DNA of 64,000 bases from Microthyrium microscopicum (Eukaryota), in contig MU004231.1 of NCBI GenBank assembly GCA_010405405.1, positions 1,309,784 through 1,373,783 of the forward strand, written 5' to 3'. The notes beneath the pieces are model-generated. The model saw only the letters and a list, made by a program, of their open reading frames with translations. It did not search any database and was not told the origin of the DNA. Within the stretch, counting starts at the first letter, position 1. Each line of letters begins with the position of its first letter. Shown in pieces: positions 2,341-38,914 of this stretch. Both the position numbers and the translations under genes were made by a program.

Positions 2341-2404
2341 TAATAAGTAAAATAATATCTTAATTCCTTATATAATAAATAAAATAATATCTTAATCTCT
2401 TATA
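2341..2404. repeat. 32-bp imperfect direct tandem duplication in the RIP block
   Basis: taataagtaaaataatatcttaattccttata followed by taataaataaaataatatcttaatctcttata. Confidence 0.8.
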
Positions 2405-4246
2405 TAAGGCATTTCTTTATAAAAAGTAAATACCTTATATATTCTAATAAGTTATTTATAAAGCGTACGCTATAAGTAAAATACTAAGTATTTTATTATA
2501 AGATATCTTACTATATATATTTTCTTAAGTAGTTTTTAAAAAAGAATAGTATAGTAAGCTTTATAATTAATTTTATATATATAGAAATATACTATATTAG
2601 AGAGTATAAAATTAGAAGTAGAGAGAGCCTTTTAGCTAAGAAGGCTTATTCTATAGTAATAGAACGTTATTTTTAAAGTAATACTTATTACTAGATTATT
2701 ATAATAAGACTATATAGGTATAAAACTACTATATAGTATAAGCTTAAATAATTACTATAAATTTTATATAATTTTAAATTATATAAAATTTTTTAAATAA
2801 TTATAGATAATATTTTTTCTTTTTTTTATAAAATAGCTAAAAAAAAATTATTTCTTTACTAACTTAGCTTTTAATATAGCTATAAAGAAACTTAATAAGA
2901 CTTAAGTATATATACTACTTATTATATAAACTAGCTTAGTATTACTTAGATATAATAGCTAGATTAGAATTATAGTTTTTTTCTTATTTAATACTAAAAA
3001 ATTTTACTTTACTAAACCTTTTTTATTATAATTCTATTACTTAATTATATTAGTTATACTTAATTTAATAAAGAAAAATAAACTTATATATAATTTAGCT
3101 TTATAAGATTATTATATAGTAGTACTAACTATTCTAGCGCTAATCTTATGCTATTTCTTTACTTTTTTTATATTTTTATAAGTATAGTATTCTATAATAG
3201 TAAGCTAGCCCCTTAAATATTTAAATATAAATATATTTTATAAGATAATTAGTATTTATAAAGAATACTTACGCCTCTAGCGTTAGTAGTTTTACTAATT
3301 AGTAAGCTAAATAGTATATATAATAGTTTAGTATATAAGCTAAGGAATATAGACTTACTAAAATATAACTTTACTTTATATAATATAAATAGAGAAGTCT
3401 AAAATACTCTATATTAATATCTTAAAGCTTATATAATTATATTAAAAGCTAGAAATTACTTTTAAAGATATAAATTAGTAATAAAAAAGTATTAGAAAAC
3501 GTTATAGCTAAAGAGATAGAAGTTTTTAGTAACTTAGACTTACTAAAAGTTAGTAAAATAGTTATAAGTAAAAAGAATAACGCGCTAAAATAATATTATT
3601 TAGTAAAGAATTATATCCTTCTTACTATTAAGATATAATACCTAACCTAAAAGGATAATATATAAAGAAATAATCTAAGAACTTATAAAAGAAATAATAT
3701 CCTAAAAGAGATATTATAGCTAAAGCTTACTTATAAATTAATTTAGTAAAGAACTACTACTACTAAGCTTTACTAAACTTTACTATAGTTATAAATCTAT
3801 AACTTTACTTTTATTCTTTTAAGAAAGAAGCCCTATAGTACTTATTCTAATTAAAACTCTTAAGTAGTATTATTTTATTTATTAAAGCTATTTTAGAGAA
3901 GATATTATAAGTATAGTCTTCTTAAAGAATATTTCTTTACTAAATTTAATAAGCTTCCCTATAAACTAATATTTTTATTTATAATATATCTTTATAATTA
4001 TACTAAAATCTATATATAACCTACTAGACTCTTCTATATAAGCTATAGTATTATATAAGAATATTACTTTACTAAATATTAGTAACTTTATTATAAATAA
4101 AGATAATTTCTACTACTAAAATATAAAAAATAATTATTACTAAAAATACTATCTAAAGATAGCTCTAACTAAGAGTAAAGTAGAATAAGTATTAGAATTA
4201 TTATTAACGAGGGCTAACGTCGCTAATATAGTAATATAGTAACGTA

Positions 4247-11961: not shown

Positions 11962-13446
11962 TCATATCTCAACTCCTTCGGTAAGATGCCCCGAACGATT
12001 TATTGTATGGTGCCTTAAGCCCCCAGTCTCTCTGTCGTAGTCTGGCCTTATTGTTCTGCTCCGTAGTGGCCAGCTAGAATCATTCAAATTATGTTCTCGA
12101 TGATGGACTTCTTCCACGTCAATGAGGGTCAAATCTTGTTCCAGGCCCCAGCCAACCTGCCACGAGAAATGCAGGCCAAAAAAGTCAGCCATCTCGCTCC
12201 TGATCTGCTGTCTTATCTCTGCATTTTCTGCATCTCCTTCATACACCAATCGCGGCTTGGTCTCCTTAGCCCACAGTGTATCTGCAGACGGGAGTTTTGG
12301 AAAGTCGCAGTGGGGTCCAGATGGAGACTCGTGCCTCGTGTGCGTCGAGGCATGACCATCATATGTGTGTGCTACCACGACTGCGACAAAAGGTTGTCTT
12401 GTAAAGGGCGGCTCGACAATCTCCGACGGACCCCGTTCGCAAGTCCAATGAATCTGGGTGGCGCATTGCGTGCATCGCGCAGCATATGCCGTTCCCACAG
12501 TATAGTCTGTAGGCAGCTGGACCGCGTGCTGTAATCCGTCGCTTGAAAGCTCTAACGGATCCCAACCCGGTTTGAGGTCAAGCTGGATATCTTCCCTCTT
12601 CTCCGACGTAGATGCTAACATGTGGTGTGGACATACGTCGAGCGCAATCTTGCTGTGAGACCAGGATTCGTTTGCGGCACGGTATTTGTAATAGCGCAAT
12701 ACAATCGCTTTGGAGCGGAAGATTCGAGTTGTTACTTTAACGAGGCCGAGGTATGACGGATTGCCAATACTACGTTTCCAGATATGTTCGGCTATATCAA
12801 TATGCGGCAATCCCTGCATACCGGACCAGGACAAGTTTTTCAGGGGCGAGAGGACACATTCTTTTGGCTGTGATGTCTCGTAGTGGGATCGGAGGTAAGG
12901 AAGGAGGTAGAAACGCAAGTAGGACTTCACCATCCCATGAGGGACGGCATTGCAGTCATTGCCAGGCCGAACTCTTGGATCGTATCCCAAGGGGTCACCA
13001 CCAAGGACAAAATCCCCATCGCCAGCTTGAGGTACATATTGGTACGGATGGAGGCAGACACAAGTGGCGCAGATCCAGTACCTTTGAGGCGCATCTCGCT
13101 GAAGTAAATGCAAGAGGCAGAGCGTATCGATTCGTGTAGTATCATCAGACAGGTTGTTTCGACCTCGGAGTCTACGCCAGCAGTCTGTCCCAAGCTTTTC
13201 ACATAAAGCTCGACATGTTAAGCTTAGGACAGCCTCTGAAACTGGTGAAAGTTGAGATGTGATGTCTACCAGGATTTCCGCTGGTAGGCTGAGAAGCCCC
13301 GGAACGGGAGATGTGCCGGTCGAGAGATCTGGATCTGGATCTGGGATTCTCTGATATCGATGCGTATAGCCATGAGGCCAAAGAATATTGCAGATTCGCT
13401 GGAGCAAAGACATGGCTTTCAACAGGGGGTCACTGTGCCAGCTCAC
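11962..13446 (-). CDS. F-box domain protein
   Basis: 494-aa ORF with LLSLPAEILVDITSQL...VLSLTCRAL and a downstream CxxCxxxH. Confidence 0.8.
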   Translation of the reverse strand: MSWHSDPLLKAMSLLQRICNILWPHGYTHRYQRIPDPDPDLSTGTSPVPGLLSLPAEILVDITSQLSPVSEAVLSLTCRALCEKLGTDCWRRLRGRNNLSDDTTRIDTLCLLHLLQRDAPQRYWICATCVCLHPYQYVPQAGDGDFVLGGDPLGYDPRVRPGNDCNAVPHGMVKSYLRFYLLPYLRSHYETSQPKECVLSPLKNLSWSGMQGLPHIDIAEHIWKRSIGNPSYLGLVKVTTRIFRSKAIVLRYYKYRAANESWSHSKIALDVCPHHMLASTSEKREDIQLDLKPGWDPLELSSDGLQHAVQLPTDYTVGTAYAARCTQCATQIHWTCERGPSEIVEPPFTRQPFVAVVVAHTYDGHASTHTRHESPSGPHCDFPKLPSADTLWAKETKPRLVYEGDAENAEIRQQIRSEMADFFGLHFSWQVGWGLEQDLTLIDVEEVHHREHNLNDSSWPLRSRTIRPDYDRETGGLRHHTINRSGHLTEGVEI

Positions 13447-13937: not shown

Positions 13938-15158
13938 CTAAACAAATCCTATTTTCACTGCAAGATTCTCTAGTTCCTCACTCCACCAGATACTCCAGAA
14001 ACCAGTTTTGGAACTCGGAATCTCACTGGTAAAGCAATCGGCCCAAAGAGGCTGGCCAAACCTGCCCGTGTCGGCACTTCCATCAACAATGCTGAGGCTC
14101 AGAGGATGTACTTCCGTATAGATATGTAGTGGTACAGATACCACAATAATGATGAACATCAGCGAGAAAATGATTTTCAAAAAGCTAGTGTTTCCTTTGA
14201 GATGTGTCGTCGAAAGCGGAAACCATTCTTGCTTCTTGAACAGGCTCTTGATGGATATTTCCAGGCCCCGGGTTATTTCGTCGCCAAGGTCGTGTCGATC
14301 AGGTCCGTTGAGTCTTGCGTCTAGCTCTTCCTTTACTCGAGCATCTATCGTTCCAAGCAAAGCAAAAACGCATGCGCCACCGATAACCAGGCAAATATAT
14401 GGGACTATGACCTCGAATTGAGCGAGGTGATTCGAGCTTTGGCTTACGCCTCTATCATAGCTGATGCAATAGAAGCTGTTTTTCAGGCTGAGAGCTTTCT
14501 CGGTCTGACAGTCCGGGACCGAGATGGGGCACACTGTGTGAGTTGGCACCCAAGCACCATACTGATCCCAGCCTTCTTTGATGCCTGGAGAGATGGATGC
14601 GCAGACCGCTATATAAAGAAGCACAAGGTCAATATAGAGCAGAAGCCGTAGGTGAGTAATCCAGTATATTCCTTTGTAGTTGTTAAGATATGGCAGGATT
14701 GATAAAAAGGAGACAAAAGCCATGGATGGCGCAATTCGTGCACCGCCTCTGGCAACTTCATGAGCAGCCCCTGCCCCAAGATGAGGATTTCCTTTGATAG
14801 CAGAGACGAAGGTCGATATGGCACGAATCGTGATTATGAGGTATTTTGCCAAATCCAGAGCAATAGATGAACGACTTGGTCGCTTGTTTGGGTCATTTTT
14901 GCCGGATTCAAGCTGCTTGTGTGCATTTCTGCTAGAAATCAATGCCCACACAGCAAATCCGACTGATATAGAGAAGCTGATCAACACGTAAGGCCAAGGA
15001 CGTGGGAGTGATTGTGGACTGTATTTCACAGAAAACTTTGATATATGTGACTGATTCCATAGTCCATAGCTAGGAGAGCCGGTACCGAACGGGGATGAGG
15101 TGGCCATTGTTGCAAGTAATGAGAGCAGTTCGCGAAATCTTTGGTGAGCGTTTGCCAT
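13938..15158 (-). CDS. Hypothetical multi-pass membrane protein
   Basis: 406-aa ORF with about six hydrophobic segments; family not recognised. Confidence 0.7.
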   Translation of the reverse strand: MANAHQRFRELLSLLATMATSSPFGTGSPSYGLWNQSHISKFSVKYSPQSLPRPWPYVLISFSISVGFAVWALISSRNAHKQLESGKNDPNKRPSRSSIALDLAKYLIITIRAISTFVSAIKGNPHLGAGAAHEVARGGARIAPSMAFVSFLSILPYLNNYKGIYWITHLRLLLYIDLVLLYIAVCASISPGIKEGWDQYGAWVPTHTVCPISVPDCQTEKALSLKNSFYCISYDRGVSQSSNHLAQFEVIVPYICLVIGGACVFALLGTIDARVKEELDARLNGPDRHDLGDEITRGLEISIKSLFKKQEWFPLSTTHLKGNTSFLKIIFSLMFIIIVVSVPLHIYTEVHPLSLSIVDGSADTGRFGQPLWADCFTSEIPSSKTGFWSIWWSEELENLAVKIGFV

Positions 15159-20755: not shown

Positions 20756-23700
20756 CTAGTCCTCCAGGGCCCCAGATATTAAGCTCTGCAGTACAAAGTC
20801 ATCATCCACGAGCCAGCAATTGTCTGCTTCGAACTTCACTTTCGCTTCCTTCATCTGTTCCTCTGAGTCGACATATATCCAGTCCCAGTCTTCTGTTGCC
20901 TCCCTGTACACTCGATAAGCCTCTTCTAGGTCTGCCACGCGTTGAATTGCTTTCACCCCGAGTGCAACCGTCAAGAACATGAACACTTTGCGCTTCTTAG
21001 GCAAACGCTTCCCTGCTGACACGAATAGTATACGTTCCCCGCTAAAGAGCTGATCACGTCGAGAGAGGGTGCGCGCTAATTGAGCTTCAGGCGAGTCTGG
21101 CGCGTAGGGCACAAGTGTGCGTGAGAGAATCGCGCCTTGCAATGATTTTGATTCACCAGCTGCCAAAGCATAGCGAGCCCACGGAAGAGGACGGCCCTGG
21201 GCGGCGCTGTCGATTGCCCATCGGTAATGTAAGACTGGAATTGCGAGTGCAAGAGCCTGCATATGCTTGGCGCGACGCGAATGTTGATCGGCCAGAACTG
21301 CGGTGAAACCTATGTTTTGTGCAACCGCGGAAAGATGCAGCTGTGGACGAGTCTGCGTGCTAGATGAAGCAGTCGAGTCGGCGAAAAGCGTTGTTGGCAG
21401 GTCAAAAAGTTCCTCAAATCCATGTTCGACCAGAGAACCACCGTTTGTTCGAAGAGCCTTCTTGACAGCTTTAGCATCCTCCTCTGGGATGTTACTCAAT
21501 GCAAACGACATGTTGCCAAAGACGCCCGATGCTTCCGCGATTGCTTCTTGCACATCTTGGACTGGGCTTGCTGCTCGTTCTGAGGCATGCACTGATCTGC
21601 GACTATTGTCGAAGACTGGCGTAGACACTCGAGATCGGCTACTTGTACTCAATGGTGTGGGTACAGTACTTGCGGTCGGAATGTTCAAACTCGGTATGTA
21701 TTTTCGACTTTCGAGCTTTTCGAATTCTTGAGGTGCGATCTTGATCTTGGAAACCGGGATATCAATGATTTGCGCTACCTCTACGGTGGAAGAAATGCTG
21801 TCCCTTGATTTTGTAGTCACACAGACAGTCTGATAGCCAAAGACATCCATGGTAGGAACTTGCACAGATGGTTCAGCTTCCAACGGATTAAATTTGTTTT
21901 TGAGGCCAACAACCACGTAGTTCTTTCCTCGCATTCTAGGAAGCTCGACTTTGACAAAGTCACCAGGGCGGAGTTCCAGGCGAAATATCCATTTATTTGC
22001 ATCAACTGCCGATGTCGATCCATCGTCCCATAAAACGTCAAGCGACACTGCTCCTCGCGCGATGGCTACCTCCTTTTTGCAGGTGCCAGGGTAACAAGCG
22101 TTATATTGTCCAGGAAAGTAGCCAAATATGCGATCTGTATAGACTAGATTTTCTTGACTCAAATCTGTGATCATGTCCTCGCCTGTGACTACTTCAGATT
22201 GAAAGGCCCCTTTCTCTGGCTCCGGTTGCTTCGAGCTTTCGAAAGGTGTCACTGGATGAGACGCGCTGAGGGTTCCAGTGGAAGTCAGACCGTATTGTGA
22301 CTCCTCCACATCAAATACACTGCCCATCTTGCTTTTGGCCGCTTGTCTTTTCTCGCGATCTCGTGCCGTAGAATTGAAGAACTTTTTGGGTCTTGTAAGT
22401 CTTCCTCTCCCGAGAACATTACTCCCGGCAGGGGTAGCAAATTGGTGTACCGTAGCAGAGCTGATTTCTACTCCAGCCTGTTCGGATCCATTGGGTTGCT
22501 CAACTACTTCGGTGCTTCGTGTCGATAGTGGTACCATTTCTTTATCTTCTTGGGCGTCCTTTCGCCCAGGAGAACTGATTTTCTGACGTTTCCGTCCATG
22601 CCAATTGACGGGCGATGATCCAGAAAGAATAAGTTTCTCGGGGATCTCACTGGATAGCTCGTCCAATTCGTCGTCGGAAATTTCCAGATATTTTCTCCGT
22701 TGCGTATGTAGGTCTGATAGAGGGGACGAAGTACTCCCGTTAGGAGCAGACGCAATTCTTGACTCGGCCGTTTGGTAGTCTGTTCCATTTGACGTATCTG
22801 GAGCGTCTTGAATTAATGATATCGAGTTGTCTTCGCCCTCTATTATCTCTGAATCACCTACGTCCTCCAACCGCAGGGGCTCATTTAGCATATGACTTGC
22901 CTCTTGCTGGGTATGAGGATCAACAGAAGCTATTTGGGATGCGAAGTTGTTGACTCCAAGATCAATGATATTCGCTGGCGGGCGGAGCTCGTCATCTTCG
23001 ATCTCGTCTTGCCCTTGACTGAGATTTAGGACGCGAACTTGCGAATAACTTGAGCTTTTCTGTGAGGTACCATTGGTCAAGGGCAGCTCCTCGCGGACAA
23101 CAGGTGGACTACTTGGCACTGGACTCTGTGACTCGGGGCCGCTGTCTTTGAGAGTCGGAGGTCTCTGTGGCGACGAGGTATTTAAAGCAGCCTGAGTCGT
23201 CGTTCCCAGCTTCGCCTTTTGACTGGAGGCCAAGTGGGAATAAATTGATTCTAGTGGCCCAGTATCAGGGCGGCCAGATGGCGAAGAAGGAATTGGAGGT
23301 CTTTCAAGATCATGGGGCGTACATTGTGAATCCGTAACTCGGTCTGTATGCTGTGTACCAGACATTCTCGGCACTTTAAAGAATAGGTGAACATCCTCTG
23401 GCGTTCCAGCGATTTTCAAATTTCCTTGTTTGTGACTTTGTGCACCCTCATCTTCATTCATAGCATCCACACTCTCATCAATTGTTGAGCTAAGCGGAAT
23501 GCGTGCACTGATTATTCGGGGCTTGGTGACAGTAATAGGTGGTTCAGCATCAGATTCGTCGTCATCCTCTATAACAATAGGTTCAGCTGAGCTTCTAGCA
23601 CGTGAAACTCCAGCAGCTCGTGCTTGATCATCCTTTAACAGTTGCTCTTTGGCTACTGGACCCGGAAGCTTCGCAAGAGTAGCTAGATGATGGGCCGACA

Positions 23701-24466
23701 GGCGATTGACAGGCGCGGGAGGCATAGGGGTGCGAATTTCTATCTCATCGAAATCCTGGGATGTATCGTCCAAGTTCTTGAATGTCGGCTGAGCTGGTGT
23801 GGACGCAAAGTATTTTGCGGGCGTCCGTTGTTGAGTGTGGTAGTCGGGAGAGGGACGATCAAATACGGGATCTGATCTCGGTGCGTTGGCAGGCGAAGTT
23901 CCGAGCTGTGTGGTTGCAAATGCCTGTGTCAATTCGACCCCAGCGCCGAATCCACCAAACATCCTCTTCAATTCAGATCCAGGGGTCTTTGTCGCCGAGC
24001 GAGATGGACGGGTGTCACTCGTTAGTAATCGCGATTCATTTTTGCCTGAAGTCACCGGTGTCTGGGGATTCACCACTGGCATTTTACGCTGTGGAAGGTC
24101 CGGAGGGTCTGTGACGAGATTTTCTAATTCATCGCCAGAGTCAGCATGAGCGAGACTATTCTCGTCATCTGGACCTCGTAATGGTAAAGAAGAGTCTCCA
24201 GCCTCATCGTTCATGTTATAGTCCTGAGTTTCCACCAACTGTGTATCACCTCGTGAGCTGTCTGCGAATTGTCTAAATGACTTGTTCATGAGCGCGGCAT
24301 GAGTCTCGACTAGGAATTGGGGCGATGGAGATTTGGCCCGATGCGCTTTTTCTCTTCGGGTCTGTCGTTGATTGACACGGGAAGAGTCTTGACTTTCTTC
24401 ATTCTCCGATTGCTGGACATTGGCAGACTGAGCCAAACGGGCGCGCTTGGAAGGGCGAGTACTCAT
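20756..24466 (-). CDS. rad9: DNA-damage checkpoint adaptor Rad9/Crb2-like (SQ/TQ-rich N-terminus, Tudor-like region, BRCT)
   Basis: 1236-aa ORF; low-complexity SQ/TQ region, YPGTC...WDDGS...LELRPGDFVKV, and BRCT-like ADQHSRRAKHMQALALAIPVLHYRW...YALAAGES. Confidence 0.85.
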   Translation of the reverse strand: MSTRPSKRARLAQSANVQQSENEESQDSSRVNQRQTRREKAHRAKSPSPQFLVETHAALMNKSFRQFADSSRGDTQLVETQDYNMNDEAGDSSLPLRGPDDENSLAHADSGDELENLVTDPPDLPQRKMPVVNPQTPVTSGKNESRLLTSDTRPSRSATKTPGSELKRMFGGFGAGVELTQAFATTQLGTSPANAPRSDPVFDRPSPDYHTQQRTPAKYFASTPAQPTFKNLDDTSQDFDEIEIRTPMPPAPVNRLSAHHLATLAKLPGPVAKEQLLKDDQARAAGVSRARSSAEPIVIEDDDESDAEPPITVTKPRIISARIPLSSTIDESVDAMNEDEGAQSHKQGNLKIAGTPEDVHLFFKVPRMSGTQHTDRVTDSQCTPHDLERPPIPSSPSGRPDTGPLESIYSHLASSQKAKLGTTTQAALNTSSPQRPPTLKDSGPESQSPVPSSPPVVREELPLTNGTSQKSSSYSQVRVLNLSQGQDEIEDDELRPPANIIDLGVNNFASQIASVDPHTQQEASHMLNEPLRLEDVGDSEIIEGEDNSISLIQDAPDTSNGTDYQTAESRIASAPNGSTSSPLSDLHTQRRKYLEISDDELDELSSEIPEKLILSGSSPVNWHGRKRQKISSPGRKDAQEDKEMVPLSTRSTEVVEQPNGSEQAGVEISSATVHQFATPAGSNVLGRGRLTRPKKFFNSTARDREKRQAAKSKMGSVFDVEESQYGLTSTGTLSASHPVTPFESSKQPEPEKGAFQSEVVTGEDMITDLSQENLVYTDRIFGYFPGQYNACYPGTCKKEVAIARGAVSLDVLWDDGSTSAVDANKWIFRLELRPGDFVKVELPRMRGKNYVVVGLKNKFNPLEAEPSVQVPTMDVFGYQTVCVTTKSRDSISSTVEVAQIIDIPVSKIKIAPQEFEKLESRKYIPSLNIPTASTVPTPLSTSSRSRVSTPVFDNSRRSVHASERAASPVQDVQEAIAEASGVFGNMSFALSNIPEEDAKAVKKALRTNGGSLVEHGFEELFDLPTTLFADSTASSSTQTRPQLHLSAVAQNIGFTAVLADQHSRRAKHMQALALAIPVLHYRWAIDSAAQGRPLPWARYALAAGESKSLQGAILSRTLVPYAPDSPEAQLARTLSRRDQLFSGERILFVSAGKRLPKKRKVFMFLTVALGVKAIQRVADLEEAYRVYREATEDWDWIYVDSEEQMKEAKVKFEADNCWLVDDDFVLQSLISGALED

Positions 24467-24798
24467 GATGGGAGCATTATTCGTGGGTATGTTTGGAATC
24501 CTCGGGTCGTGGCGTCAGTGAAATGGTGGGAGGAGCATTGATCCGAGGAAGAGAATTCCGGTCTCTATGGCAGCTCAAGAGAATGGGCGATTTGAAGGTG
24601 GGTCGAAGGTGATGAATCGGGGTGGCGTCCTGACGTGTGAGCTGTGAACTGTCTCAAAAAAAGATTCAACAACATCAGTTCGGTCCTTAGAGCATACGAA
24701 TATTCCAATTCAGCGATAAAGCCAGACAAAATGATATTTTACTTGTTTTAAAGTGCAAATCTTTGCATCCAGTCTCAACCTCATCGAGCTACGTAGAA

Positions 24799-24822
24799 GC
24801 GCGTATTCAGGTTCTCACGCGA
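24799..24822. promoter_or_regulatory. MCB-like elements upstream of rad9
   Basis: GCGCGT at 24799 and ACGCGA at 24817. Confidence 0.4.
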
Positions 24823-25195
24823 AGCGCACTAGAGTGAAAGAAGCAGTTGCGGGCCGTTCCTTAGCTTAGCAAGGATCCTACCACCAACGCCGGGACAAGA
24901 CCTCCATTTGGAGTTTACATACGTATAGCGTGCAAAGTCAAAACAATATTATTTCGCTTTTGGGTTTGATATTAAGGACTTATGGTTAAAGCCGCATTAC
25001 CCGAAGCATAATGAGCTGAAAATCAGTAGCAGAACGGAGCAATTAATAACTCCGGAGAGCGGGGCACCAACATTGTACTATTTCAGCCTCAGCCTTGCGG
25101 TTACAACAGATTCCAGAATACTATAAAATCTGGGTGGTCCCGGCTATATCTATTCTCAAACTCACTTTCTTAGTTAGCATATCAGTTTTGATAAA

Positions 25196-26043
25196 ATGGC
25201 AGCACAGCAAAAAATCATCCTGGTTACTGGAGGCAAGGCATCTCTTGTAGCTTTACAATCTACAATGGCGCTAACTAATTCTCATAGGCAATGGAGGAAT
25301 CGGATATGAATTAGTGGCTCAAATGGCAGCTACTTCCTCCAACCATGTCCTTCTTGGTAGTCGATCAGTGGAAAAAGGCTCTACTGCTGTCGATGAGCTG
25401 TCTTCCAAAGGTCTTGCAGGCACCGTAGAGCTTCTCCAGCTCGATGTCACGGATGAGAAATCCATCGCTGAGGCTGTTAAACAGGTAGAAAGCAAGCATG
25501 GGCGGTATGTTCGGCTGTCCACTTCGGTAAACCATCCACTGACCAATTTTTCACAGACTCGATGCTCTAGTCAACAACGCAGGAGTTAGCACTGCTGATG
25601 GCACTCTCACAGCTCGAATGAACTGGACCTTCCAAGTAAACGCTACTGGACCAGCCGCCATCGTTGAAGCATTCGAGCCACTGCTCAAGAAGTCAACTGG
25701 AACAGTTCGCATTGTCAACGTATCTTCTGGCGCTGGCTCAATTACAACACGCCTGATTGCAACCAACCCGTTCTATGAAATGAAGGTGGTCGACTACCGC
25801 GTCAGCAAAGCTGCATTGAATATGGTCACAGCATGTCAAGCAGCTGAGTATGGCAAACTGGGCTGGAAAGTGTTTGCATTCTGTCCAGGCTACACTGTGT
25901 CGAAGTTGTCGAATCAGAACACGGAAGAATATGGTGCTCAGCCTACCAGCAAGGGGGCGGCTCCAATTGTAGACATATTGAATGGAAAGAGAGATGAAGA
26001 ACACGGTCGATTTTTAAACGCCACTGGGCAGTTCCCATGGTAG
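25196..26043 (+). CDS. Short-chain dehydrogenase/reductase; first intron GC-AG
   Basis: TGGNGGIG (after splicing 25233-25287), LDVT, NNAG, NVSSGAGS, YRVSK (YxxxK), CPG. Confidence 0.9.
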
Positions 26044-26363
26044 GGCGACTGTACCGCATTACATTTGAAAACAATGGCACGAGTTTTGAGAATTGGAATA
26101 GATCAGGATTTTCAAGAACGAAGGCTCCCCTCTTAATTCTTTTAAAACCATGAAGAATCGTGGAAAGCTTCTGTGCATTGTAAAATGGAATCAAGTATTT
26201 GAATTGCAAGCTAAATTGCCAGCATTTTTGTTAGATTTTAGGGAGCAATTACAAAGCTGTTACCCCAGGTACAATTCCCATCCTCCTGTAAACCTAGCGA
26301 GCCCATCGCAAGGCTAGTCAGGCCACTGCCAGCCATTCCTCCACTAAGCCCGAGCGATGAGAT

Positions 26364-27053
26364 CTACAACTTTCCTTCTGGAGCGGCAGCTCCGGCGTCA
26401 CCAGAGGCAGGTGCTGGAGATGTTGCTGGAGCAGCTGGTGCAGGAGCCGATGGGTGAGTAGGAGGGAGGTGGTTGAGGATATCGTCAACAGTTGGTGGGA
26501 TCTCAAGCACAGCAGTGTCTAGAAGAACACCTGGAGACTGGCGCTTCTCGGGAGCTGGCGATGATGGGCCGGGCGCAGATTCACCAGTAAGCTCGCCAAC
26601 AAGATCAGTAACCTCAGACAAGTCGAGGCCTGGGAGCCCACCACGTTTCTGAGCAGGGATGGGTGCCGATGGTTTGGGTGCAAGTCCTCCAGTAAGCTCG
26701 CCAACGAGATCGGTGACCTCGGATAAGTCAAGCTCGGGGAGCTCGCCGCGCTTGACAGGAGCGGCTGGTGCTGCCGGTGGGTGGACAGCAAGGTGGTTCT
26801 CTAGGTCATCGAGAATGGGAGCGACTTCGAGGGTTGCAGTGTCGAGGATGACGCCTGGTGATTGGCGTTTGCCCAAGAGGTGGTTTTCGACGTCGTCAAG
26901 AACTGGTGGGACTTCGAGGACGAGAGTGTCCACAACTAATGGGAGATCGAGAGGGTCGGCTGGAGGACCTGCTGGTGGTGCAGCGGTAGGAGCCTCCTGA
27001 GGAGTTGGCAGTGCGGAGACAGCCGCTATGAGGGCGAAGATTGCGTAACGCAT
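26364..27053 (-). CDS. Secreted Kex2-processed repeat protein (KEP), peptide precursor
   Basis: Signal peptide MRYAIFALIAAVSA; four KR sites separating five repeats of two types. Confidence 0.88.
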   Translation of the reverse strand: MRYAIFALIAAVSALPTPQEAPTAAPPAGPPADPLDLPLVVDTLVLEVPPVLDDVENHLLGKRQSPGVILDTATLEVAPILDDLENHLAVHPPAAPAAPVKRGELPELDLSEVTDLVGELTGGLAPKPSAPIPAQKRGGLPGLDLSEVTDLVGELTGESAPGPSSPAPEKRQSPGVLLDTAVLEIPPTVDDILNHLPPTHPSAPAPAAPATSPAPASGDAGAAAPEGKL

Positions 27054-27888
27054 TTTGATATCGTGCTTTGAATAAAAGAATGTGTGAAGTTGGTTGACAA
27101 ACGAATGACTGGAAGCAATGAAGCAGAAAGAAGCGAGAATTGGATATCTGATGGAGGTTGAAGAGGGGAGATGATTTGCCTGAAGACGATCTTCTAGATA
27201 TATGCCTTTCAGAGGCCCCTAATCCAAATATCTTATCATATTCATCACTCATGGGAAAAGACGGGAGCCTCAGGTCGCCCTGGAAGCCTTCTTGAAGCCA
27301 GAAATGGCTATCACCGTTAAACACTGATGTCTTGGTGGAGCATGCTCTGAATCAACCGCTGTTAGCATCATCTGAATGAAGAGAGTAGCAATGTTGATTA
27401 CCGTTTCGAGATGTCTTCTCCTATGCCTTGTTGAAGATCGGATCGTCGTGGCGTTCTCTGGCGGGCGTTTTCTGACAAGGCGGATCTGATCGACAGGATT
27501 GACGTGCCGATCTCAACCAAAACAACAAGCTTTTTAAGTGTAATTTCCAAGACTGTGGAAAATAAACACTGGCGCACCTGCGGCTCAAGTAAAAAGGCGT
27601 TTCAAAGGAACAATTAGTTCCAACTCTATAATATGACAGCCAATGGATCTCATATCTGGGAAAATTCGTTGCGGCATAGTGTCAGATCATGCTCAGACTT
27701 GACTTCTCAGGCCCGTAGCGGGAGCATGTGAGTCGCCAATCGAGATTAAATTCTGTCCTGAGGTTGTGGGCTTCACAGATATGCAGAACTTTCAAGGCGA
27801 CTGCAAATCATTAGGAGTTTGACTTTGGGTATTATTATGTGCAGCGTGTTGGGCAGTCTCTATATCAACAATACTCTAGTTTAGACCG

Positions 27889-30221
27889 CTATAGAAGATC
27901 AATATCACCATACTTTTGAGAAAACATTCCCAGCGCTTTCATCGGAAAGATGAACTTGTAGTTGGGATACGAAATCATACTAAATCACGCACGTCAGCCG
28001 TCATCGAAGTTACGAAAGCACAAACAGTACTTACCAGCTCTTGTTGAACACCCCTTCAATAGCCTCTTGTAACCACTCTCCGTTCTTCTGCTGCCGCTCC
28101 ATAATCATCTTCAATGCCTTCTTGATCGGCGCCACGTCGGGATACCCAGCCTCTATCAATCCAATCACCACCCATGCAGTCTGCACCACTTGACTCTTCT
28201 CATGAGGTGTATACACGCCCGTCTCACAGCTACGATAACTCTCACCCCACCCACCGTCCTCCATCTGTCGGTCGATGAAGAATTGGCAACCTCGTCGAGC
28301 ACGCTCGCTGTTCTCGTAGGTCTCGCCAATCAATCGCAGAGACTCCAGCGCAAACATGCCTGCGTATGTGAAACAGATGCCCCAGCTACCGTACCAGCTA
28401 CCGTCCGGCCGTTGCGCTTTGCGAATATAATCCACACAGCCTTTGAGGAATGCCTCGATATCGGCGGTGCGGTAATCGGGATAGTGTGCTTGGAAGATCT
28501 TGAGGGCTGTGACGCATGCTGTTGTGCATTCGGGGTAGTCATATTCGACCATAATACGTCCGAACACCTCGGCTGCGTTCAGGTACTCCATGTACTCAGA
28601 GCCACGCGTAGGTTCGTAAGAAGCGCAACCACCGCTAGAGTTTTGATATGTGAGGATAATGTCAATGGCGAGTTTGATGCGGTCGTCCGGGATGAGCTTG
28701 GGGTACCCAGGAATGGCTTGTAGCAAAATGACTGATTTGACTGCTTCAGCTGTGCAATCGCTGACGGCGTAGCCTTGGTCTTTGTTGCTGAAACCCCAAG
28801 CTCCTTTTGTTGGATGACGGTAGCACTTTTCTTGCTCAACGCGGTTTTCTAGCGTCTGTTGAGATTCAAGATATTCGAGAGCTTTGAGAAGCATTGGCTT
28901 CCATTTGGGACTTTCTGCCAATCCAGCTTCCATCACGGCCTGGATCAAAAATGCTGTATCCCAGTTCTGAACTCCGTTCGTACCATTCATCAGCATACCC
29001 TCATCCTTGACCCACAAAAAGTCCTCCATGCGCTCGCGATGACGGTGGACTGAGTATGCACTTGGCCCTTCTTGGATATAACAGGCCAGAAGGTTCATAG
29101 GGCCATTGACTGGGCCAAGATTTGCAAAGTCTGTGTTCTGATCTTCCCATTTGATGAGCTGCCAGGTCCAAGCTTCAGCAGAATCAGCGATTGACTTCGT
29201 TCTCAGATATGGATTGTAAATGTTGACCAAGAGCCAGTTGAGAGAGTTAAGTACCCAAGTTTTGGGATGGTAGTTGTCACGGGGTGAAATGCTGTTTCTA
29301 TGGTATGCAAAGTCGATCTTCTCATAGTCCTCCGTAAACAACTCTTTTCTCAGCTCCTTGATCAGAGTCGTTTCTGGATATGTCCACTTCTTTGACCAGA
29401 TGAAGGACATGGGTAAAAATACTTGACGCATGTGTATCCACCATCTCCACGGAGCTATAGGAACCCAATCGGGGAGAAGCCATAGCTCAGGAGGAGTTGG
29501 GTTTGCAACCTCCCACTTGGTAACACCAAGAACAGAAAGCCAGAATTTTGTCCAGTGTGGTCCACATACTGCTCCACCAAGCGAGTGTAGGACTCCTCTG
29601 GCTTTTATCATTCTTGGATCCTCCGCACTCACGCCCAGTATCCGAAGCGTTGTGTAGTTCATCGAAGTCCCGAATGCAGTACTTTCTCCTTCAATATGCA
29701 GCCCCCATCCCCCCTCTGCTTCTTGACGTGCGAAGAGGTAATTTATGATTTCGATAGAGTGTGCTTCGGGTATTGGTGTTTCTGTCACATACCAGGTAAT
29801 GACCAGACCAGGCAAAAGAAACATGGGACCACCGTATTCGCATCCCCAGTTGCCCGGGGGTAGTTGAAGTTTCGAGAAAAATTCAAGTCCATTGTCAATT
29901 GATTGGAGTGGAGTTTTGGCTGGGGCAAGGTCGGGGAGATTCTGTGTAATATTAGTATCGCGTAACGCAAGTAGTTACGGATGTTCATACAGTCGGCATG
30001 CCAAGATGATATTTGTCGGCAGTAGACTGTGGCCACTCTTTCTCTTCCTCGTCGGTCCTCAGGTAATGCCATGTTTGCCTGCCATCTTCATCGAGCAGGC
30101 GCCACTTGGAATAGTCGGTCTTGCGATCCTTGCCAATGCGCCCGTTCTGGATCTTGCGTTGCTTTGCCATTGGCGACGGGGTCGCGCCATTGGTCTTTTT
30201 CTCGGACCTTGTAGTGACCAT
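27889..30221 (-). CDS. ERG7: Lanosterol synthase (oxidosqualene cyclase), 3 exons
   Basis: [31 protein letters not shown] catalytic motif, [20 protein letters not shown] and MISYPNYKF. Confidence 0.96.
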
Positions 30222-31950: not shown

Positions 31951-33547
31951 CATTCGCGTATCGCCGGCCTCCATTCTTACGACAAACCCACCTATGAGGT
32001 CGTCGACGCAACAATGAACTGTTCATCGAGGACCTGCATGGTTCAATCCGGAAATCACAGAGCTCCAGCCTCTTGAGCCTGCCAACAAAATTTGTTACTA
32101 TGATTATCTCAATGGCCTCGATGAAGCAAAAATATGTATCGTCAGCCAGTCAAAAGGCTTGTCAAATTTGCCCTACTTATATACACACAAAGGCAATCTC
32201 TCAAGTCTGTTACGACTTCTGGCAGATCTCGCGTCGTTTTACGTTCTCCGCAATTCGACTGCGTCTTCTACAGTCACCCGAAGGGTCCATTGGTGTCCAC
32301 CAACTCTATGCAACCATTTTGGAGAGCCCAGATATTTGGCATCTTTGTCGGTCATTGCATTTGTATACTAAAGAGGCAATTATCTTGCCTACACGCCAGC
32401 CAGTAAACCTCAGCACCTTGATGGAAAGCCTCTTGAGTAAGGTTAAATGTTTTGCCATTGACGACAGCACTCGGCCCGCTCCTGGCCTTCCCATTCATTT
32501 CACCGACGTACTCACGAGACTTACTTCGAACCTTCCTGGGCTTACCCATTTCAGTTGTAACAAGGTTCACTTCACAAACATTATGTTTAGAGAAACCTTG
32601 CGTCCCATCAAGGCCTTAGAGTCTCTTCGTGTCTCGCAACCCCGGAGCTTGGATCTAACAACCCTGTTCTGGGAATGTAACACAGCATCTCTAAAGCATT
32701 TAGAGTTCTCACGTCTCGGTGATGACACGGTCCAAAAAAGCATCAACTCGCTTCGTCGCCGAAATTTGGCAGGTTCTCCCCGCTTATAGTCATATAATTT
32801 CTGACCAGAGCTAGAATCTTCCTCAAGTGAAAGTATTGCGTATGGATTGTGACCGCAAGCTCTTCAAAGAAGGCTTCGTGAACCAATTTCTGACTCCGCA
32901 GCTCCATACTTTGATCCTGAACCCCGCTGATGTCTTCGTGTTCGGTTTCAAGGATAGTGATGAGCTCAGCTTGACCGAGTTCATGACTGGAGTGGTGAAG
33001 AGCAACTCATTGTTGAAGACCATTGACCTCTCGAATGTCTTCCGGGATGGATTGTTACGAACGCGTAGTGGCTGGAAGCTCAGAGCTGGCTTTCTGCAGA
33101 AATATCGTGAGAATACTAAAGGCATGAAAAGCTTCGAGCTGACAGGTAACTCCGCTTTTGTTATATCAGTACAATTTCACACTAATGAACTTAGATCTTC
33201 GAGCTCCCCAAAACCCATACGAGCGATCGAAGAATATTGCTCGTGCCGGGCAGGATCTTGGCTTGGCGGCGATGGATCTCACGAAGCCTATGAACGACGC
33301 AACCTGGTTGGAGCTGAAAGTGGATTTGGTCCTTCTCTGGAACCTCGCGGACGACTGGTGCTGGGAAGAGGCCGTGACTGGCTATCTCATGCGCGACCCT
33401 AACTTGTGCGATTACTGGGAGATAGATATTGAAGACTGGGAGTTGGAAGCCGTTGGATATGGGTATGATGTATCGAATATGATCCACCTTCGAGGTTTGG
33501 ACTACCAAGCTGCGAGAGAGAGGTATATGGAGCGTAAATTTCATTAG
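31951..33547 (+). pseudogene. F-box/LRR-like paralog copy 1, probable pseudogene
   Basis: Homologous to copies 2 and 3 (RQTHL, SQSSSLLSLP, ISQVC, QNPY, LKVDLVLLW). In-frame TGA at 31995-31997 where the paralogs have Gly; no clean splice solution at about 32770-32814. Confidence 0.7.
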
Positions 33548-34498
33548 ACAAATGACTAGTACGCGAAGGTGTATCTTCTCACCTTGTTGGACCATGGCAA
33601 ATATTCGGTACTCAATGGAATAGGTAGTGTGTATATGAAGATCAGTTGGATGCCGTCCATGAGAGGTGGGTTACTTACATACGACGTAGATCAATAGTCA
33701 GGACTTGTTACGACAGCACTTCAGTACAGGTCATTAGGCAATCGAGACAATGCCCTTCATTAGCCGCACTCTGTGATAAATTCCTTCCTTTTATTCCGGC
33801 TGCGAGATATCGCACTATCCTTGGCAGGTGACATGCTAGCTGACACGACCTTTGAGGTTGCAAAGGCATGTGAGGTGACTGCTAGGCTGATTGACCACAA
33901 GTCACTCGATGAATTTCACTCTCAAGCGTGTGGTATAATCGTGTTGGTAGTAAAGGCGTCAACTTGCTTTGCCAAACTTTCCTATCACCCGTCTTCTTCA
34001 CTTTACAATCTCCCACCATCACAACTTTCCTTAGAACATCCTTTTGCTGAATATTGTTTCTATCATAGCGATTCTTTCTCATAACTGCATTTGCCCTGCA
34101 TCGCGAACCAGCCGTCAAAGGAGTATCCAACCGTGAAATTCGTCATTCAGCACATCCACGTAACCGTCACAGTTTTGAAAGCGCGCGTGGATTTCAAGAC
34201 TTGCATCACGGTAAACACCTACCGAAGTACCGAAGAACTCGCTTCGCAAATATGGTCTTCAGTACTTACTTGGTAAAGGACATTAGCGGTAAGTTGTCCG
34301 TACAGCGTACATTGGTCAGGCGGCCCACTAATGAAGAGGGTGCTCCCATAATACTATGTCTGCAGCTCATCGCAGCGTATCGTAAATAGTTACGTCTACT
34401 ACAAGGACTTTCTTAGCCCTCGTCACTGGCTAAGCACTCTATGGCTGCCGACCATTTCTTCCCTACGCTTGAAGTCCATTTTATGGTCATACTAACAG

Positions 34499-36244
34499 AT
34501 GTCAGGTCAGCTACAAATTGGACACAAAGACACCCGAGATATTTATCATATTTCCCGAACCCCAGATTATTTTAGGGAGCCGCGCATGATTTGCAAACCT
34601 ACCATGTACCCGTCCCAGCCAATTCTGCGGCAAACCCACCTTGGTTGGGATCGCCGCACCCATCGATTGGCGATCATTGATTTTCAAGGCGCGCCTCATG
34701 TCTCCCAGAGCTCTCATCTCCTGGAGCTGCCAAATGAGATCCTTCTAAACATTGTCTCACTTGCTGCTGTCCAGGAGCCCCATGTTTCAGCATACGACAC
34801 AGAATACGACAGTCCAATAGAAGAGCGATGGGATACTAGTCCAATTTGTGATAAGCATCCCAATACGCGGAACATATCTAAGGTCTGCTACCGGTTGTGG
34901 CAATGCTCTCGCATATTTACCTTCCGCACAATCAAGGTGTCCCTCGCGGCGCAGACTTGGAGTTCTTACTTGTATGTGCGTCCCTTCTATAGACGACTAC
35001 TAGAATACCCGGATCTATGGCGCTTCTGTCGTTCCCTTGTCATATCTGTGGACTTGGGGATAGGGGCCGGGGGGCAGACACTCCAAAATCCTGATATCAG
35101 CAGTATGTTGCGAGAACGGCTCAGCAATGTGAAGTGTCTGAGCTTCAAAGGTGAGGTCGATAGCAACGTACTCGCCGCCATAACCAGCCAAATGCCCAGC
35201 CTGCAGCATGTGAGCTGTGAAGAACCACCAGACTGTTGGGAAGGCGATATGACAGTTCCACGATACCAAGACTTTTTGAAGCCTATCAAGCAATTGAAAT
35301 GTCTTCGCGTCTCAGGCCCTGGGACTTCCAGCTTGAAACAAGATTCACTTCTATCGGAAGCTCACAAGCAAACGATTCAGCGTTTGGAGCTGCTTAGTCT
35401 AGGGGATCATGCCGATACCCAGACTATCTACTCGCATTATAAACCTACGGATGTTCCTCACTTGCGAGTTTGGCATATTGATTATTCTCACGAGCTGTTT
35501 GTTGATACTGATCGCTTCATCGAACAGTTTCTAGGCACACACACTCAAACTTTAATGCTGAATCTGACTAAAATCTTTCTGTTCGATTTTGACGAGACCG
35601 ACGAAGCGGATTTGATTTGCTTTCTGACACAAGCAGCTCAGTGTCGACCAGAATTCAAAACTCTGGAAATTTTTCACCCGTTTCGAGGTTCATATCTGTC
35701 CGAAGGAGGTGCACCCGTTCAGGATCGTGATGGGAAACTACGTTTTTGGATGGAAGAACACTCTGGTGATCAGCCCGATGATTTTGGCTTAGAAGGTATG
35801 CACTGGCTGCCACATAGTGGACATGAAAACAGCAAGGACTTTGAGCTAACAGGTATAGAATTGAAAAACTACCAGAACCCCTGGAAGCGGTTTGCTAATG
35901 TGGCTCGAGCTGGTGAGGCTCTTGGGCTAATTGTCAAATGCTCCTCATCAACCTTGGACGAAGAAAACTTTCTGAGGGCGAAACTCGACTTGGTCCTAAT
36001 GTGGGATCTGGGCCAAGGTTGGGACTGGAACAATTCGATCAGTAGCTACCTCACGGGTATTCCCGATGCGGAAGATCCCTGGTATTACCCGTTCGAAAAG
36101 GAGGACCTAGATAGGTTGGGGTGGGATTACCCCATAGACGCGGTGAAGCAGTCGAAGGTCAGATTAGAAGATTACGTCGAGGCGGTCAGAGAGTTCCCGA
36201 AGGAACAGGAGAACTTTAGCATCAATTCGCGATTTCTTCTTTAG
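34499..36244 (+). CDS. F-box/LRR-like paralog copy 2 (intact ORF; true start may be a later ATG)
   Basis: 581-aa ORF; F-box-like LLELPNEILLNIV and ISKVC; LxxLxL-like repeats. Confidence 0.82.
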   Translation: MSGQLQIGHKDTRDIYHISRTPDYFREPRMICKPTMYPSQPILRQTHLGWDRRTHRLAIIDFQGAPHVSQSSHLLELPNEILLNIVSLAAVQEPHVSAYDTEYDSPIEERWDTSPICDKHPNTRNISKVCYRLWQCSRIFTFRTIKVSLAAQTWSSYLYVRPFYRRLLEYPDLWRFCRSLVISVDLGIGAGGQTLQNPDISSMLRERLSNVKCLSFKGEVDSNVLAAITSQMPSLQHVSCEEPPDCWEGDMTVPRYQDFLKPIKQLKCLRVSGPGTSSLKQDSLLSEAHKQTIQRLELLSLGDHADTQTIYSHYKPTDVPHLRVWHIDYSHELFVDTDRFIEQFLGTHTQTLMLNLTKIFLFDFDETDEADLICFLTQAAQCRPEFKTLEIFHPFRGSYLSEGGAPVQDRDGKLRFWMEEHSGDQPDDFGLEGMHWLPHSGHENSKDFELTGIELKNYQNPWKRFANVARAGEALGLIVKCSSSTLDEENFLRAKLDLVLMWDLGQGWDWNNSISSYLTGIPDAEDPWYYPFEKEDLDRLGWDYPIDAVKQSKVRLEDYVEAVREFPKEQENFSINSRFLL

Positions 36245-36928
36245 ACGGTCTTGCTCCCAAAAACAGATATTTTCGGGATTGGCAAATGTATAAAGTGCCA
36301 GACATATAAATATCCAAGGTAGGCGGGTACCTCTGCATGAATAGAACAATATCAATACAATACCATCCACCAGTCAAGGGGTGCATAGAGAATACATGTA
36401 GGTACCTTACGCGGAAGGGTGGCTAGAAGACATGATCCTTAGGCAGTGGATTCAGTATTATTGCATGTGTATTAGGATCACAATATCACTTTCGTAATTC
36501 ACAATTTGTTGAGGAAAGTACTTTCCTGAATTCGAAGACATTCTTCCCGAGTGGACGCCCAGTATGTAGGGACATAAGGTCCAGTCTAAAGGAATCGAAC
36601 CTGCCACAACAAGCAGCTCAGAATGAGTTAGTTGAGTAATCCAAGTATTACTGTATTCGCAAGGGCCCATAGCAATTTTCGGAAATGGCAAAGCTTTTCT
36701 TTGTTGAGATTTGGTTGACAAACTCAGCTATGGTCAAATGCTCAATCGCTGAAGAGTTCAGATGGTGACTGGAAGTCTGCCGAGAAGCTTCCACAGCTCT
36801 CTACTGTTTCGCTGGTATTAAACTGCAGAGCGTCTATCCAAGTCCCCTTGATAAGTTTTCTGTGCCATCTTGTCCGCGAAGTTTTGACTTTCTTCATTAA
36901 TCTATCTCCACGAAAACCTTCCTGCAAG

Positions 36929-38914
36929 ATGGGAACCCTTCGCCCTACCTACTTGGCAGGCTATGGAATGAAACGTCAGCTATCGATCTTCCGTCGTCCA
37001 AGAAGAAAAGCGCCGACCAAATCCTATCGGTTTCAATGGCCGCCACTTCCAGCTCTTCAACAGGCCTACCTTGGAAGCGATAAGCAGCTGTTATCATTCA
37101 TTCGTCGTCGTCCAAAAAAGGCGCCATCTACATCTTATCCATTTCAATACCCGCCACTTCCAGTCCTCCGACAGACTCACCTGGGACGCGATGCGAACTA
37201 CAATATACTAATTACCGACCTTGGCGGTCTGATACGAGTCTCACAAAGCTCCAAGCTCCTCGCCTTGCCATCGGAGATTTTGCAAAAGATCGTTGAATGG
37301 GCTGCTATTAAAGAGTCCTGCATACGGTTAAGTGAGTCCACCGTGTTTCTTCAAATTATCATTCATTTAATACTAACGATTTCAGGAACCGGCTCAATCA
37401 TAGAGAAAGAGGACTGCTCCTGCGAAATATGTTACGCCTATGCAAACACCAAAACCCTCTCGCAAGTCTGTTTTCAATTCTGGCGATGTGCGCGAATCAT
37501 TGCCTTTCACACCGTGAGGATTGACATCCCAGTACTTACCTCTGAGATTGGCTCCGAATCTTACTATGATACAAAGGAGGATGGATTTGAGTTCGAACGA
37601 TTACATGAGAAACTACTGCGACTCTCATATATCTGGCGGTACTGTCGCTCCGTCTTTCTCAGCACCACAACTTATGGCCAGCATAAGGGTGGTCGTTCAC
37701 GACGGAATACGAGCTTAGAAAGAATTATCCGCAAAGCATTCCGAACAGTCAAGTGTCTCACTATCTGCAACATAACAAGAGGACGTCAGGGAATCTTCAC
37801 CAAGTTCGTTGCAATGGCCGCAGCAGAGATGCCTCGACTTTCTCACGTCAACTTCATGAACGGGGAAGCAGCCTTTACGGAGGCACAGCATGAATCAATT
37901 CTGGAGTCAGTCAAAAGTTTGCAATCTCTTCGTATTGCTCGGCGTGACACGGATTTTTGGGCCAGGGTAAGATTGCGTGGTGAATAAATATGATCTGATG
38001 GTGCAGTAGAACATTGTGGCCCTCACAACACTCTATGGCTACCCTGAAGCATGAGGGGATGTTGCGCTGAAGAGACCAAATGGTCTTTTCAGCGCCTCTC
38101 AGATGGCGAAACGCTCTTCCTTGATCATACACTAACATATTGGCAGACACTGCTGACTGGACATAATCTACAGTCACTTCAGCGATTAGAAGTCCGCCGT
38201 AGATATGGTGAAGCCATCGGGGAAGATGCCTACTCGCTGTTCAAGCCAAAAGATGTCCCTCAGCTAAGAGTTCTGCTCATTGAATACGAACGAGAGCTTA
38301 TGACGAACGCTCCATACTTCATAAGCCAATTCATAGGCCTGAACACCCATACATTGACCCTCAGCCTTGCCGAAACCTTTCTTTTCGACTTCGATGCCGA
38401 GGATGAAGCGCGGCTCATCACATTCATGGAAGAAGCAGTGCGCACTCGACCTGCTTTCAAGACTCTCGACTTATCCATGGCCTTCCAGGATAGCTTTTCG
38501 AAAGAAGGAACGCGGAGAACCGGCAAATTCCAGCTTGATGCTGGGACATGCAGTATGTTCCGCGTACACAGCCATCGAATGCAAGTGGATAATTTCAACC
38601 TTTCAGGTACGTGACTGCGATATCTCTCACCGCACTTGGTGTGAGGTGCGCCATTTTTGGAGCGGGAAGATAACTTTCGTGAAAAAATAGATCTCAAAGC
38701 TTTCCAAAATCCATGGACGCGTTTCGCCAACCTCGTTCAGGTCGGAAAAGAACTCGGAGTGACCGTCAAAACTCCCATCACCACATTGGACCATGCGTCT
38801 TTCCTGGATTTGAAGTTCGACTTGGCACTTCTATGGGATATTGGGGGTGACCAGTTGAGTTGGAGAGGCGATAAAGCGACCCAAATTGCGCGATGGTTGG
38901 GACAGACCTCGTGA
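36929..38914 (+). CDS. F-box/LRR-like paralog copy 3 (multi-exon; 3' part possibly disabled)
   Basis: LLALPSEILQKIV, LSQVC, FLFDFDAEDEA, QNPWTRFAN, LKFDLALLWD. In-frame TGAs at 38612 and about 38642 unless removed by an intron with a non-YAG acceptor. Confidence 0.65.

Follow-up and report, generated by a model that had tools for sequence, protein, structure and literature searches.

In fungi, KEX2-processed repeat proteins (KEPs) are defined by a signal peptide, repeats of 8–100 amino acids (aa) separated by Lys-Arg (KR) and the lack of an anchor (Le Marquer 2019, PMC6339444; Umemura 2020, PMC7329392; Vogt 2022, PMC9769878). Published counts put stand-alone KEPs at 2560 of 7878 (PMC7329392) and two-motif KEPs at 77 of 1193 (PMC6339444). 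Ustilago maydis Rep1 is described as giving Kex2-cut, amphipathic peptides of 35–53 aa (PMC4617103), Hum3 similar peptides of 31–36 aa, and Ece1 of Candida albicans is described as a KR-cut precursor of differing peptides, candidalysin and seven others (PMC12153327). Dikaritin precursors (ustiloxin, phomopsin, asperipin-2a) carry a signal peptide and KR-separated repeats, and alpha-type pheromone precursors combine Kex2 sites with a run of X-Pro/X-Ala dipeptides open to trimming by Ste13. In Coprinopsis, six kep knockouts showed no change in growth, and the study leans towards roles in biotic interactions (PMC9769878).

Here we analyse a window of 64,000 nucleotides of contig MU004231.1 of Microthyrium microscopicum. 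It contains a gene (P0001) for a predicted precursor that shares with KEPs a signal peptide, no anchor, Gln after KR, orphan status and two motif types, and that, judged from its sequence, is best explained as a lineage-restricted KEP with two unrelated types of repeat. The features of the gene and of its two neighbours are as follows.

26364..27053, minus strand: KEP precursor gene, single exon, predicted secreted protein of 229 aa (open reading frame and contigs of run X1)
27012..27053, minus strand: predicted signal peptide, residues 1–14 (hydropathy, -3/-1 rule)
26952..27011, minus strand: Pro/Ala leader, residues 15–34 (dipeptide phase)
26871..26951, minus strand: A1 core, residues 35–61, with C-terminal Leu-Gly (core alignment)
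26865..26870, minus strand: KR site 1, residues 62–63 (sequence)
26754..26864, minus strand: peptide A2, residues 64–100, core 64–88, then Pro/Ala tail (sequence, core alignment)
26748..26753, minus strand: KR site 2, residues 101–102 (sequence)
26649..26747, minus strand: peptide B1, residues 103–135, core 103–122 (sequence, core alignment)
26643..26648, minus strand: KR site 3, residues 136–137 (sequence)
26547..26642, minus strand: peptide B2, residues 138–169, core 138–157 (sequence, core alignment)
26541..26546, minus strand: KR site 4, residues 170–171 (sequence)
26367..26540, minus strand: peptide A3, residues 172–229, core 172–196, long Pro/Ala tail, no hydrophobic anchor (sequence)
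27054..27210, minus strand: likely 5' leader and promoter, a pyrimidine-rich stretch with a TATA-like ATATAT (sequence reading)
25196..26043, plus strand: short-chain dehydrogenase (SDR), convergent neighbour (Pfam adh_short; introns skipped in X1)
28031..29941, minus strand: main exon of lanosterol synthase (ERG7), upstream neighbour (Pfam, relatives)

The 229-aa frame bears out the layout that an earlier note had read from the letters: a signal peptide and five segments in the order A-A-B-B-A, cut by four KR sites. The start ATG has A at position -3, and the signal peptide is predicted on two criteria, hydropathy and the -3/-1 rule, from a basic n-region, an 8-residue hydropathy of 3.15, Val at -3 and Ala at -1. 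After its 14 residues the segments measure 47, 37, 33, 32 and 58 residues; all five are acidic, with net charges of -5 to -8 (-8 for segment 1 without the signal's Arg), a pI near 4.1 and GRAVY values of -0.16 to 0.39. Tyr, Phe, Trp, Cys and Met are all missing from the mature chain, as is any N-glycosylation site (the sole Tyr, residue 3, lies inside the signal peptide), and Pro and Ala make up 73 of the 229 residues. No hydrophobic tail, transmembrane segment or GPI-type anchor was found, the top 10-residue hydropathy in the last 30 residues being 0.27. Further details of the earlier reading hold as well: A2 and A3 both start with Gln-Ser-Pro-Gly, LP-TP precedes Gln19, and segment 1 ends in Leu-Gly before KR. 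The Pro/Ala spacers that it described are present, but they trail the cores (segment 1 excepted) and do not come after KR, where the residues are QSPG, GELP, GGLP and QSPG.

The KR pairs begin at residues 62, 101, 136 and 170 and account for all four Arg of the mature chain; none of 200,000 composition shuffles reached four KR. Shuffle tests also confirm the two repeat types, A in three copies and B in two with an identical core. The A cores align pairwise with scores of 74–94 (0 of 5000 shuffles for each pair) and the B cores with a score of 85 (0 of 5000), sharing 15 identical residues (LDLSEVTDLVGELTG); a direct-repeat search recovers the same families. A copies are identical at 12–13 of 20 positions, and D-T, L-E, P, D-D and N-H-L are invariant in all three. 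A common origin of A and B was rejected, as all six A-B pairs score at chance level in both protein and DNA (1193–3421 of 5000 shuffles).

The claim that the peptides are amphipathic stands in part. On the Eisenberg scale the helical moment exceeds that of shuffles in B1 (91 of 5000), B2 (44 of 5000) and A3 (115 of 5000), the two B results being one test because the core is common, and it does not in A1 (663 of 5000) or A2 (636 of 5000). As a helix, the B core would set a Leu/Val face opposite an acidic face; the A helix would be shorter, with Asp83 and His87 of A2 on one face. Structure models of the precursor are low-confidence and mostly coil: AlphaFold2 without an alignment gave a pLDDT of 48 and a pTM of 0.14, and a modelled complex of A2 and B1 scored 0.02.

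The internal copies were compared by Nei–Gojobori counts and Fisher tests, on alignments picked by protein likeness, a choice that favours low pN. Between B1 and B2, pS is 0.65 and pN 0.05 (p 3e-7), with seven silent and no replacement changes in the 15-residue core; the values are 0.87 and 0.18 for A2/A3 (p 6e-8) and 0.66 and 0.20 for A1/A2 (p 0.0015), and for A1/A3 the signal is not significant (p 0.25). KR codons, too, differ silently from copy to copy. The B spacers carry no purifying signal (p 0.17 and 0.34), and that in the tail shared by A2 and A3 is weak (p 0.02). Silent sites are near saturation, so the copies are old and their protein has been kept. The cores and the KR cut sites are under purifying selection; because conservation begins at KR and fades past the core, it is the cut site and the N-terminal 20–27 residues that matter.

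This copy-to-copy selection is stronger evidence for a gene than the contigs of sequencing run X1, which span the frame without an internal joint and which also skip five introns in neighbouring genes, four of them with canonical ends. Run X1 is RNA by guess only, its contigs carry no strand or level, and the culture sampled may be the one that gave the genome; contig depth and an uncovered bin at 24771–25137 were left out of the evidence. One X1 contig, 25556–26454, joins the SDR to the 3' end of the convergent precursor gene, which hints that the 3' ends of the two genes may overlap, the contigs being unstranded. A second run, X2, yielded a single identical piece of 186 nucleotides at depth 2.6, which was not accepted as an orthologue.

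Set against published KEP criteria, the precursor has a signal peptide, no anchor and a Kex2 in the same organism; five KR-bounded fragments of 32–58 aa, where at least four of 8–100 aa cut at KR/RR are asked for; three similar repeats of type A, counting the C-terminal fragment, where at least three are asked for; and repeats covering 28% (A) or 47% (A and B) of the protein, against a threshold of 15%. Without the C-terminal fragment, the internal ones are two A and two B only, and the filter described by Le Marquer requires three similar fragments (PMC6339444), which the precursor would probably miss. Microthyrium does not appear in the tables of either KEP catalogue, the comparison covering those tables; a distant relative may still be among the catalogued KEPs.

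The genome contains one Kex2 locus (S8 and P domains, acidic tail) and a membrane-type, Ste13-like DPP IV with an N-terminal hydrophobic segment, which support the KEP architecture proposed earlier. Acidic residues at P1' or P2' are reported to be enriched at Kex2 cut sites, and one in three predicted Kex2 substrates was not cleaved in vitro (PMC2515848); just one of the four KR sites here has such an acidic residue. We consider cleavage of the precursor by Kex2 very probable.

Read in pairs from residue 15, the leader is X-Pro or X-Ala in nine of its ten dipeptides (LP TP QE AP TA AP PA GP PA DP), a phase with a post hoc hypergeometric p of 0.029; the other four spacers have no phase bias. 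The run stops at Leu35. In the alignment this residue faces Gln64, the first of A2, and Gln172, the first of A3, and full trimming of the leader would equalise the length of A1 with those of A2 and A3. Against full trimming, QE interrupts the run and two of the cuts would fall just before a Pro (P1'), where DPP IV enzymes are not known to act; a stop at Gln19 is the simpler outcome. Pyroglutamate on N-terminal Gln, as suggested before, is plausible, and elsewhere among fungi KEP peptides have been observed in linear form and with pyroglutamate (PMC9769878). The monoisotopic masses calculated for the peptides without modification are 3750.98 for A2 (3733.96 with pyroglutamate), 3312.73 for B1, 3047.48 for B2, 5579.88 for A3 (5562.85 with pyroglutamate) and 4403.32 for A1 starting at Gln19 (4386.29 with pyroglutamate). 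In a class II hydrophobin of this genome (L091, G000:C4:1094721-1094948) the pro-peptide ends with RR and the next residue is Gln, so the KEP is not alone in this fungus in having Gln behind a dibasic site. Amidation, the other modification raised by the earlier note, is not supported: Gly precedes KR at one of the four sites, A2 and A3 lack that Gly, and PAM is reported missing throughout fungi (PMC6529398). A genome search with PF01082 gave no match, its control being silent as well. SURNod19 (PF07712) has twelve matches in the genome, on 9 contigs, nine of them over the cut-off, a sizeable family.

Searches for relatives of the precursor and its repeats found none, in keeping with the suggestion that the peptide set is undescribed. 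Word searches with the whole protein, and with residues 36–125 at E 10, found no homologue among proteins of 125–401 aa; phmmer over 1.84 billion representatives gave 0 matches at E 0.001, with the protein itself also unmatched and hence no positive control; and none of 599 pattern matches in metagenome contigs was confirmed. Pfam gave no match, hence none to a metal-binding family; three globin rows among PDB sequences (E 0.17–0.22) were judged chance; and the best Atlas score was 0.79, with no usable match for residues 34–200. The gene is single-copy in its own genome, in a search that could miss paralogues with short exons; one extra match (L005, E 0.36) is weak and lies in an unrelated frame. 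The exact protein is present in Atlas and absent from a 15-billion-protein collection that holds two of nine other window frames tested, from NCBI and UniRef, so the gene may be missing from public annotation. 'Orphan' here means that none was found, since low complexity and thin sampling limit search sensitivity. ERG7 matches a Microthyrium microscopicum record at 100% identity and the best other named records at 75–77%, and sampling as thin as this may be why the precursor looks like an orphan. A literature search found no publication combining Microthyrium and Kex2. Venturia Cin3 was dropped as a relative: the literature search found no paper naming Venturia, Kex2 and Cin3 together, and the passages on it gave no function.

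Among the 27 of 42 long window frames that were scanned, the neighbours are housekeeping genes (SDR, ERG7, a Crb2/Rad9-like gene and MTHFR), and no functional link between the precursor gene and the SDR emerged. At 20756–29974, the precursor gene and the SDR sit between ERG7 and the Crb2/Rad9-like gene. We compared 80 metagenome ERG7 loci, 50 of which carry at least 1.4 kb downstream. A Crb2-like gene was matched at six: directly next to ERG7, within about 0.9 kb after it and on the same strand, in L039/L041 (near-identical), L076 and L084, and about 5 kb away and inverted in L059/L060 (near-identical). A protein like the precursor was absent from all 80. We infer that the precursor gene and the SDR entered an old ERG7–Crb2 junction in this lineage. 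Elsewhere in the window, 31998–38614 (plus strand) holds at least three tandem frames that Pfam does not match and that open, judged by eye, with a common F-box-like stretch (LLxLPxEIL-type); they probably form an F-box-like array specific to the lineage, and a genuine F-box gene is present at 11962–13413 (minus strand). At 54129–55542 (plus strand), an exon for a signal peptide precedes a frame of 258 aa without a Pfam match and predicts another uncharacterised secreted protein, and 13938–15158 (minus strand) encodes a multi-pass membrane protein of 406 aa, also without a Pfam match.

Our preferred reading, to which we give a rough probability of 0.42, is that the precursor yields linear, acid-switched, surface-active peptides that work like the Ustilago Rep1 repellents; if cleavage is granted, a surface-active function has slightly less than even odds. 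The precursor would enter the endoplasmic reticulum, Kex2 would cut after the four KR sites and Kex1 trim the ends, releasing five linear peptides of 32–58 residues with net charges of -5 to -8. The N-terminal Gln of A2 and A3 would probably become pyroglutamate, and a Ste13-like enzyme may trim the A1 leader. The working parts would be the cores of 20–27 residues, with the Pro/Ala tails as spacers: the B core as one amphipathic helix, the A core as a strand rich in Val, Ile and Thr, followed by a kink at proline and a short helix with Asn-His-Leu at its end. Such anionic peptides would be soluble at neutral pH; acid or cations would screen their charge, letting them fold and adsorb at hydrophobic surfaces such as leaf wax or the air–water interface, and coat hyphae as Rep1 repellents do.

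We count in support of this reading as a whole the KR excess, the selection between copies, the presence of the enzymes, the helical moment in B1, B2 and A3, the size and amphipathy of Rep1 peptides, the linear and pyroglutamated peptides of other KEPs and the habit of the Microthyriales, described as thyriothecial leaf-surface Dothideomycetes near Venturiales that fruit above the leaf cuticle (bioRxiv 2020.03.13.989582). Against it we count that no search found an orthologue in which to compare the KR sites, that A1/A3 gives no significant selection signal, that the helical moments of A1 and A2 do not exceed those of shuffles, and the uncut Kex2 substrates and Coprinopsis knockouts cited above. 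Protein database searches gave no sequence likeness to any repellent. Rep1 and Hum3 also differ in coming from a basidiomycete, in having 12–17 repeats and in the lack of Pro/Ala tails in the accounts cited. Hydrophobins are still encoded in this genome, at two class II loci, so their replacement is not needed; a PF01185 search gave no match, with its control silent as well. A more specific version is speculative and improbable: an ascomycete repellent of two components that arose independently, in which A and B, supplied at 3:2 by the single precursor, would co-assemble only once acid on the leaf surface or cations neutralise their charge and would fix the fungus to the waxy cuticle, with A1 acquiring an N-terminus equal to that of A2 and A3 by stepwise dipeptide trimming rather than a KR cut. 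A literature search found no two-component repellent system of this kind for an ascomycete.

After the same processing, the peptides could instead serve as signals or effectors whose target is the fungus itself, plants or microbes, which we regard as unlikely. Conservation of exact residues, as in the identical B core, would suit a receptor ligand and blocked N-termini a long-lived signal, and KEP peptides characterised to date are said to act mostly in biotic interactions (PMC9769878). However, the segments are longer than alpha-type pheromones (given as 9–24 aa in PMC6339444), they contain no aromatic residues or Cys, the A copies agree at only 12–13 of 20 positions, and no receptor-like gene was seen among the 27 window frames scanned. 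Unlike alpha-pheromone precursors, this one has its X-Pro/X-Ala run before the first copy only and no such spacer after any KR, encodes two unrelated types of peptide and has neither the Cys pair nor the PYG-type motif reported in pheromones of Dothideomycetes (PMC6339444). It is distinctly unlikely that the protein stays whole or is partly cut and serves as a disordered, O-mannosylated Pro/Ala protein of wall or matrix with sticky acidic patches: its composition, its mostly coiled models and the uncut third of predicted Kex2 substrates (PMC2515848) are in favour, but KR has been kept through silent divergence and stands exactly at the repeat starts, a disordered chain would expose it, and no GPI-type tail is present.

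Binding of metal or calcium, in which the invariant Asp-Asp-x-x-Asn-His of A and the acidic face of B would chelate cations for scavenging or as a trigger of assembly, seems to us improbable; the residues invariant in all three A copies and the shared face of Asp83 and His87 fit it, but neither Pfam nor PDB sequences matched a metal-binding family, and invariance in three copies is silent on the ligand. Anionic amphipathic helices can insert into bilayers once protonated, and there is a slim chance that the peptides disrupt the membranes of competitors on acid activation. They would then be loose analogues of candidalysin, whose precursor Ece1 has the same KR-polyprotein layout (PMC12153327), yet the precursor has no very hydrophobic, toxin-like or cationic segment, all five peptides are acidic with GRAVY no higher than 0.39, and the helices are short for a bilayer. 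Cyclisation by UstYa oxidases into dikaritin-type RiPPs is extremely improbable. UstYa has 22 matches in the genome, but the nearest on this contig lies about 665 kb off (at contig position 671 kb or so, the precursor gene being at 1336 kb), and none of the 27 of 42 long window frames scanned is a UstYa/DUF3328 gene, which dikaritin clusters place within about 15 genes. The cores also lack the Tyr required by known cyclisations, and the segments are far longer than the known repeats of 8–14 aa (PMC7329392). As the mature chain contains none of Tyr, Phe, Trp and Cys, the earlier preference for linear over dikaritin products is upheld. By the features tested, the predicted precursor is not of the dikaritin, alpha-pheromone or candidalysin type.

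The precursor design is known in fungi; the predicted A and B sequences match nothing else in the searches run. A mosaic precursor of this sort, in which each type has two internal copies, could escape a published KEP filter. Most KEPs have no known function, and this one offers internal evidence on which residues matter, which makes five defined synthetic peptides testable together. If the peptides are not surface-active, the gene is one orphan KEP among thousands. If they are, the range of repellent-type peptides would reach beyond smut fungi to an ascomycete of leaf surfaces, and the precursor would be a source of small, cysteine-free, pH-switched surfactants.
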